From positions 1 to 48,813 of IMG/VR virus record IMGVR_UViG_2718218305_000005: a stretch of 48,813 nt of DNA; one strand, written 5' to 3'. The notes beneath the pieces are model-generated. The model made no database searches and was not told the origin of the DNA. It saw only the letters and a list, made by a program, of their open reading frames with translations. Numbering within the stretch: position 1 is the stretch's first letter; every line of letters starts with the position of its first letter. A program made the translations under genes and the position numbers. The stretch comes from a virus (Duplodnaviria; Heunggongvirae; Uroviricota; Caudoviricetes). Below, piece after piece: positions 16,611 through 16,686 of the stretch.

Positions 16611-16686
16611 GGCCCTTTAGCTCAGTGGTGAGAGCGAGCGACGCATAATCGCCAGGTCGCTGGTTCGAATCCAGTACAACGCGCCA
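16611..16686 (+). tRNA. tRNA-like element (Ile2/Met-type CAT anticodon), probably a pseudo- or chimeric tRNA
   Basis: D-arm GCTCAGTGGTGAGAGC, anticodon loop CGCATAA, T-loop TTCGAAT; but 5' acceptor GGCCCTT cannot pair with the 3' strand ACAACGC. Confidence 0.45.

Follow-up and report, generated by a model that had tools for sequence, protein, structure and literature searches.

The question raised by this locus is whether a tRNA-like element, lying just downstream of an antiterminator gene of a lambdoid prophage, is a working tRNA gene, an RNA with another role, or the remainder of genes that have been lost. The sequence analysed here (the window) is the whole stretch of 48,813 nucleotides. 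The evidence described below makes it very probable that the element is a non-functional hybrid tRNA pseudogene that arose by a deletion between the tRNA genes ileZ and argO, and that spread as an allele of single origin together with the module in which it lies. We infer the lack of function from the structure of the element and from known identity rules. In other words, the element is an ordinary gene remnant which has so far gone unremarked and is mis-annotated. The literature searched on ileZ, argN and argO and on prophage tRNAs yielded no description of the hybrid. The sRNA and moron region around it is treated in the Pas-sRNA preprint and in Tree et al. (2014; PMC4104026), neither of which covers the hybrid itself.

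Location of the element in the prophage

The window corresponds almost exactly to one lambdoid prophage, of a non-Stx and NleC-carrying type, that is inserted between sdsR/ryeA (463-607) and a pphA-like (Metallophos) phosphatase gene (47878-48537). The early part of the prophage contains, in this order, the integrase gene, RalA, an exonuclease VIII-like gene, sok, and the NinB-like (DUF1367), YbcO-like and Q-like genes, followed by the hybrid. The late part continues with STnc100 and AgvB, the esterase, P21-type holin, terminase, tail J and tail-fibre genes, the IS3-family element and the gene of the NleC-type effector (Table 1). The presence of RalA and sok indicates two toxin-antitoxin modules inside the prophage.

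Table 1. Features of the prophage and of the hybrid element (positions in the window)
Feature	Position	Strand	Remarks
Integrase gene	735-1811	-	Left end of the prophage; only integrase gene in the window
RalA (RalR antitoxin sRNA)	2169-2347		Rfam, 217 bits
sok antitoxin RNA	14222-14392		Rfam, 105.9 bits
Q-like antiterminator gene (longest ORF)	15797-16471	+	Pfam DUF1133, 1.5e-105; Phage_antitermQ, 30.7 bits (cut-off 26)
Terminator-like hairpin with T-run	16546-16575	+	75 nt downstream of the Q-like gene; fold -13.1 kcal/mol, z -2.84
Hybrid tRNA pseudogene (ileZ 5' part and argO 3' end)	16611-16686	+	76 nt including the encoded CCA
ileZ-derived part (tRNA-Ile2, CAT)	16611-16659	+	5' acceptor strand, D-arm, anticodon arm, variable loop
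U33 to G substitution	16643	+	Anticodon loop CTCATAA to CGCATAA; all intact ileZ genes examined have T
Crossover interval in the shared T-arm	16660-16674	+	CTGGTTCGAATCCAG; from the mismatch map
argO-only part (tRNA-Arg UCU)	16675-16686	+	Last T-stem base, ACAACGC, discriminator G, CCA; no difference from the argO-type genes of L002, L004 and L005
Terminator-like hairpin with T7	16701-16725	+	Terminator scan; fold -13.8 kcal/mol, z -3.84
STnc100 sRNA	16762-16954	+	Rfam, 149.9 bits
AgvB sRNA	16955-17016	-	Rfam, 96.5 bits; convergent with STnc100
DUF1737/SASA/DUF6645 (nanS-p-like) esterase gene	17164-19110
IS3-family element, orfB	44341-45231		Right end, just inside the boundary
IS3-family element, ALIL frameshift pseudoknot	45157-45273		Right end, just inside the boundary
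NleC-type (Peptidase_M85) effector gene	46162-47148		Right end, just inside the boundary

The original prediction had placed the element between Q and the late genes, and this is where it lies, i.e. the Q-like gene is upstream, and the nanS-p-like esterase and P21-type holin genes are downstream. The Q-like product also matches PHROG 753 ('anti-termination protein Q-like', 7.7e-80), and its RefSeq relatives start about 130 nt further in than the open reading frame of Table 1. The element is flanked by two terminator-like hairpins. The first is at the position expected for tR' and may have the role of this terminator; the second follows the hybrid here and is conserved downstream of argO in the intact clusters of strain MS20673 (L002) and O157:H7 F7349 (L003). 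A scan for sigma-70 promoters between 16300 and 17250 gave no promoter-like site. By eye, the sequence CATAAT in the anticodon loop was considered as part of a promoter of the hybrid's own, and was rejected for want of a usable -35 hexamer.

The hybrid and STnc100 lie where Tree et al. (2014; PMC4104026) place the moron site, downstream of PR'. In Stx phages the stx genes sit at this site, between argO and an STnc100-type sRNA, whereas in the window the gap from the CCA of the hybrid to STnc100 is 75 nt and holds no stx. The corresponding locus of MS20673 contains two tandem copies of STnc100 (1865-2055 and 2333-2542 of L002). The region 12000-22000 of the window is not covered to 80% by any of the complete E. 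coli genomes; the best, O103:H2 strain 129, covers 71% at 93.6% identity. The combination of early and late modules appears to be a mosaic that has no counterpart among the complete E. coli genomes searched.

Structure of the element

The predicted coordinates 16611-16686 proved exact, and delimit a tRNA-sized unit with a CCA end that reads, on the plus strand, GGCCCTT TA GCTC AGTGGTGA GAGC G AGCGA CGCATAA TCGCC AGGTC GCTGG TTCGAAT CCAGT ACAACGC G CCA. A canonical D-arm, a CAT anticodon loop and a T-loop had been claimed for it; the D-stem, the anticodon stem, CAT at positions 34-36 and the T-arm were all found. In the Rfam alignment the D-arm, the anticodon stem and the T-arm (with its GTTCRANYC loop) are all paired. 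The one non-standard pair of the anticodon stem, A27-C43, is present in intact ileZ too. The earlier account had missed the G at position 33, which is an addition of the present work: the conserved U33 of canonical tRNAs is replaced at 16643, and the loop becomes CGCATAA. The discriminator base is G, as in tRNA-Arg, versus A in ileZ.

The acceptor strands GGCCCTT and ACAACGC had been said to be unable to pair. Indeed, the pairs G1-C72 and U7-A66 are the only two of seven that can form in the hybrid, whereas the base-by-base comparison gave seven of seven in both parent genes (see below), and each acceptor strand of the hybrid pairs at all seven positions with the partner strand of its own parent. 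We also considered an alternative acceptor stem. It was rejected, as the best 7-mer partner for ACAACGC in a scan of the 250 nt upstream forms five of seven pairs, and the closest GCGTTGT is at 11331, more than 5 kb away.

The gene prediction programs gave a consistent picture. ARAGORN, which had been named as a check, called zero tRNA genes anywhere in the window, i.e. it found no full-length tRNA with a paired acceptor stem. It likewise called none in the hybrid-carrying locus L001, whereas the intact genes of L002 and L003 were called. The Rfam tRNA model (RF00005) matches 16617-16676 with 37.3 bits (gathering score 29), covering model positions 7-64 of 71. This alignment is local, and the acceptor stem is represented in it by the innermost pair (7-66) only. 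The intact parent genes are aligned over the full model with 72.5 bits for ileZ, 70.1 and 67.3 bits for argO, and 43.4 bits for argN.

Annotation as tRNA-Met

In RefSeq the hybrid is labelled "tRNA-Met" by PGAP, with no pseudogene flag, in all of the best 60 of the 81 carrier records. The annotated gene is 71 nt long and corresponds to 16616-16686 of the window (1637-1707 of L001), i.e. the five 5' bases of the 76-nt element are dropped. At L006, L007 and L008 it spans 2519-2589, and thus all four loci that were inspected carry the label. For instance, the tRNA-Met gene MJ68_RS02280 (NZ_CP027544.1) is identical in sequence to the hybrid over 16616-16686.

If taken at face value, this label would mean that the element is a functional, if unusual, tRNA (tRNA-Met or tRNA-Ile2), perhaps with a shortened or alternative acceptor stem. 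Such a reading could also draw on the intact D-, anticodon and T-arms and on the Rfam score above the gathering score. We nevertheless consider it extremely improbable. The 71-nt gene call merely omits the five 5' bases, and neither the two acceptor pairs of the hybrid nor any upstream partner within 250 nt (at most five pairs of seven) provides a stem. The Rfam match is a local one that reaches no further than the innermost acceptor pair, and ARAGORN rejects the element. Position 33 is a G and the discriminator differs from the A of ileZ. Furthermore, the minimum-energy fold is indistinguishable from those of shuffled sequences (z -0.97), in comparison to a z of -4.03 for intact ileZ.

The tRNA-Met label of the hybrid is therefore a systematic mis-annotation. 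It implies a functional methionine tRNA and is wrong twice, since the CAT anticodon descends from that of ileZ (tRNA-Ile2) and the acceptor stem is missing. As a consequence, tRNA gene counts and the inferences on codon supply drawn from them are slightly inflated for the STEC strains that carry the hybrid (about 81 finished E. coli genomes).

Parent genes and the deletion junction

Most BLAST relatives of the region, in 5,426 complete E. coli genomes and in the phage collection, match the window as far as 16674, and their match continues after a gap of about 175 bp, in a stretch annotated as tRNA-Ile, tRNA-Arg and tRNA-Arg. The window was aligned with the intact clusters of L002 and L003 (alignment A1), and was compared base by base with the cluster of the Stx2a phage WGPS8 (L004), in which the genes are named ileZ, argN and argO. 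That Stx phages carry ileZ-argN-argO at this place, as the original prediction held, is true of WGPS8, where the cluster is found at the same position.

The 5' part of the hybrid, 16611-16659, is the same as ileZ of L002, L003 and L004 in 48 of 49 positions, the exception being 16643. Of the sites that distinguish ileZ from argO, the last at which the window follows ileZ is the G at 16659. Over the first 64 nt there are two differences from intact ileZ, at 16643 and 16667, and the last 27 nt, from 16660 on, are identical to argO without a mismatch. These figures show that the likeness to the two genes is due to homology and not to chance. The argO gene (tRNA-Arg(TCT)) is the third gene of the intact clusters; it begins with GCGTTGT and ends with ...CTGGTTCGAATCCAGTACAACGCGCCA. 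GCGTTGT is exactly the partner that had been predicted for ACAACGC, with which it forms all seven pairs. Neither parent is matched over its full length. The agreement with ileZ ends between 16659 and 16674, beyond which the 3' strand is ACAACGC and not AAGGGCC, and the discriminator is G and not A; of argO, the UCU anticodon arm and the initial GCGTTGT are lacking, and the match is confined to the last 27 nt.

A fusion of the 5' part of one tRNA with the 3' part of another, with loss of the sequence in between, had been suggested, and can now be specified as the 5' part of ileZ joined to the 3' end of argO. The missing interval is 174 bp in comparison to L002 and L004 and 177 bp in comparison to L003. 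It is a single gap exactly between the two T-arms, and comprises the 3' end of ileZ, the whole of argN and the first three quarters of argO. The parents are thus members of one cluster that stand in the same order as their parts in the hybrid, exactly the interval between the parts is missing, and the junction falls into a sequence that both parents share, CTGGTTC(G)AATCCAG. This is the pattern of a pseudogene formed by deletion between neighbours. The alignment that had been proposed, with the cluster of 933W-type phages, shows the relation to the Stx-phage genes to be unambiguous and locates the junction.

A further addition to the earlier account is where in the shared T-arm the crossover lies. 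If the parental ileZ had the common TTCAAAT loop, the crossover lies in 16660-16666 (CTGGTTC), and 16667 is the first argO-specific base. The interval widens to 15 nt (16660-16674) if the parent had the TTCGAAT allele, an ileZ form that is found in the pig ETEC prophages L030 and L031.

Many integrases target the T-arm or the 3' part of tRNA genes. A junction in a T-arm could therefore also be the trace of site-specific recombination, in which an integrase acting on tRNA T-arms left an attL/attR-type hybrid, instead of a homology-driven deletion. We find this origin highly improbable, given that in the cluster of the relatives the parents are 174 bp apart and precisely this interval is gone, with no foreign DNA at the junction. 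In addition, there is no adjacent integrase gene, the sole one in the window being at the left end of the prophage, and integrative elements normally restore a functional tRNA, which the hybrid is not.

Distribution of the hybrid allele

About 81 of the 5,426 complete E. coli genomes carry the hybrid, as judged by a best match of at least 99% identity to a 103-nt query across the junction. The best 60 of these 81 records all match in a single piece and are 100% identical to the query. Among the matches listed, the carriers include O157:H7, O121:H19, O45:H2, O111:H8 and other strains. IMG/VR contains 21 further contigs with the hybrid junction. Repeated T-arm sequences could in principle be mis-assembled, and a sequencing or assembly artefact would then have collapsed two similar tRNA genes into one. 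The probability of this is practically negligible and the explanation was rejected, as the same junction, always with G33, recurs in about 81 independently finished genomes and in the 21 contigs. In the phage collection the hybrid is absent from all 283 records that have the cluster, mostly Stx phages.

The hybrid and the substitution at position 33 always occur together. A synthetic query with U33 found nothing better than the G33 allele in the 5,426 genomes, i.e. there is no hybrid with U33 among them, and an intact ileZ with G33 was found neither in these genomes nor in IMG/VR. Every hybrid found has G33. It follows from this complete linkage of fusion and substitution that the allele arose once. 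As neither a U33 hybrid nor a G33 intact ileZ is present in the collections, the data fit either order of the two events. That the allele has one origin and is widespread was not part of the original prediction.

Upstream of the hybrid the carriers show three contexts, namely a DUF1133-type Q gene directly, another Q gene with an ORF of 141 aa, and a DUF1133-type Q gene with an ORF6N remnant. From the hairpin at 16548 through the esterase gene, by contrast, the carriers agree with 97.6-98.6% identity. For L006 and L007 the BLAST homology begins at 16548, and carriers with different Q genes are alike from there on. The shared sequence from 16548 and the differing sequence upstream indicate that the hybrid travels with the downstream module while the Q modules are exchanged. 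Three of the IMG/VR carriers (L009, L015 and L028) have a 5-nt insertion right after the CCA (GCCA-CACCACACTT...) followed by downstream sequence unrelated to that of the window; it follows that the hybrid has also been recombined onto another downstream module.

The genomes of the carriers contain between 4 and 12 places that match the query. Strain E2863, for example, has the hybrid at 5,298,853 plus an intact tRNA-Ile at 1,358,806. The tRNAs lost with the deletion are thus supplied from elsewhere in the same genome.

The allele, with its fusion and its G33, is easily recognised, and may serve as a marker for the late-region module that consists of the terminator, STnc100, AgvB and the nanS-p-like gene. 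With its help one could follow how this module is passed by recombination between lambdoid prophages that have different Q genes, and between serogroups.

Variability of the element and its flanks

Variability was low within the hybrid. Among 25 carriers there are 2 differences in 1,900 compared positions versus 1-3% in the flanks, a figure to be read with 37 of the 76 nt being fixed by the IMG/VR search pattern. Of the 25 carrier loci that were aligned to the window, 23 have the hybrid without any change. The differences in the flanks are grouped in a small number of haplotype blocks that carriers share, i.e. a T-run at 16718 that varies in length, a cluster within STnc100 (16826-16864), and replacements of whole blocks. 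Such a block-wise distribution is typical of recombination rather than of accumulated mutation. Because of these haplotype blocks and of the positions fixed by the search pattern, the low variation of the hybrid is not evidence of selection. Within the hybrid there is a single private change, G16627A in L012 and L021, and it destroys the conserved GG of the D-loop. Like U33G, it has the look of a change in a dead tRNA gene that is decaying, as far as can be judged from the sequences.

The invariance leads to the question of whether the RNA has been co-opted, either as a processing signal of the late transcript or as a mimic or decoy for tRNA-binding enzymes or anticodon nucleases. In favour of this are the intact core arms, the same sequence in 23 of the 25 aligned loci and in the best 60 of the 81 genomes despite their differing flanks, and the position of the element as a compact unit between two terminator-like hairpins. 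On the other hand, the invariance is explained by a recent single origin, and the variation of the flanks is of the block-wise kind. Both of the changes, U33G and the G to A in the D-loop GG, strike residues that are universally conserved in tRNAs, and no compensatory changes are seen in the hybrid. There is no promoter-like site in the scanned region, and none of the 283 sequenced phages with the cluster has the hybrid. We thus regard co-option as very unlikely. One specific form of it would have the hybrid produced from the Q-dependent late promoter, with the intact tRNA 'elbow' (D-arm, T-arm and anticodon arm) acting in the processing or stability of the late transcript and of the adjacent sRNA module, or as a mimic that titrates an enzyme or a nuclease. 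We give very little credence to this proposal; if it were true, the role of the elbow would explain why the element stayed invariant during its spread through prophages of at least four STEC serogroups.

The use of rare codons bears on the cost of the loss. The ORFs of the prophage use ATA, AGA, AGG and CGA at 7.8, 5.9, 5.4 and 5.1 per 1000 codons, respectively, values that are above the E. coli averages. The loss of the cluster was therefore probably mildly costly to the phage and not neutral.

Proposed origin and implications

The preferred explanation, a pseudogene formed by deletion, can be put into the following scenario. The ancestral prophage would have carried ileZ (tRNA-Ile2, CAU), argN (tRNA-Arg UCG) and argO (tRNA-Arg UCU) just downstream of the Q gene and the first late terminator, in the manner of 933W-type Stx phages. 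Recombination between the near-identical T-arms of ileZ and argO (CTGGTTC[A/G]AATCCAG) would then have removed 174 bp. This may have happened by intramolecular deletion or slippage, or by unequal exchange between two prophage copies of an STEC genome. To judge from the aligned clusters, recombination or slippage over the 7-15 nt of T-arm identity seems the best explanation of the deletion, and routes within one prophage and between prophages fit equally well.

The product retains a tRNA-like core, with mismatched acceptor strands, an Arg-type discriminator G and the U33G substitution. From established tRNA biology, an RNA without the coaxial helix of acceptor stem and T-arm would not be expected to be matured by RNase P. 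Charging by IleRS, MetRS or ArgRS would not be expected either, as the A73 discriminator of tRNA-Ile2 is missing and there is no Arg anticodon. TilS uses the acceptor pairs C4:G69 and C5:G68 for lysidine formation; both are absent in the hybrid, in which C4 and C5 face A69 and A68. The hybrid would thus be at most passively transcribed within the Q-dependent, antiterminated late transcript.

Since then the allele has spread through the non-Stx lambdoid prophages in several lineages of STEC, carried along by the module of the terminator, STnc100, AgvB and the nanS-p-like gene. The loss of the cluster was presumably tolerated because the host genomes hold several other prophages with intact copies. 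The implications are of a modest kind, and a specialist would find none of them surprising. The conserved arms of clustered phage tRNA genes can serve as short recombination targets, and the rare-codon tRNA cluster appears to be dispensable in non-Stx prophages of multi-prophage hosts while being intact in all 283 sequenced phages that have it.

Relation to known tRNA clusters and hybrid genes

Decay within clusters of this family seems to be common. In O157:H7 F7349 (L003) the tRNA at the argN position (about 1715-1800) resembles the hybrid in that it is not called by ARAGORN, Rfam or PGAP. Unlike the hybrid, it has decayed in place through point changes and small indels, with no fusion, and to judge by the alignment it is a second and independent case of tRNA decay. 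A different kind of variation is seen in the prophages of the pig strains O139:H1 and UMNK88 (L030 and L031, 1501-1811), in which ileZ is followed by a tRNA-Thr and a tRNA-Gly gene and not by two tRNA-Arg genes. The sequences suggest that ileZ is a conserved anchor that is followed by variable downstream tRNAs.

The closest known system is the ileZ-argN-argO cluster of 933W-type Stx phages, e.g. Stx2a_WGPS8 (NC_049944). Like the hybrid, it follows Q and precedes the moron and lysis region, and the same terminator follows argO there and the hybrid here. The two differ in that the hybrid locus lacks 174 bp, including all of argN, as well as stx, and in that the halves of the hybrid come from different tRNAs, with no acceptor stem and with G33.

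The classic case of hybrid tRNA genes is reportedly that of the tandem tyrT genes of E. coli, which undergo unequal crossing-over. In both systems two neighbouring tRNA genes recombine over a short conserved stretch, so that parts of them are joined and the sequence in between is lost. In contrast to the tyrT-type hybrids, the partners here differ in their amino acid specificity, the product is dead and not a functional recombinant, and the allele resides on a mobile prophage module.
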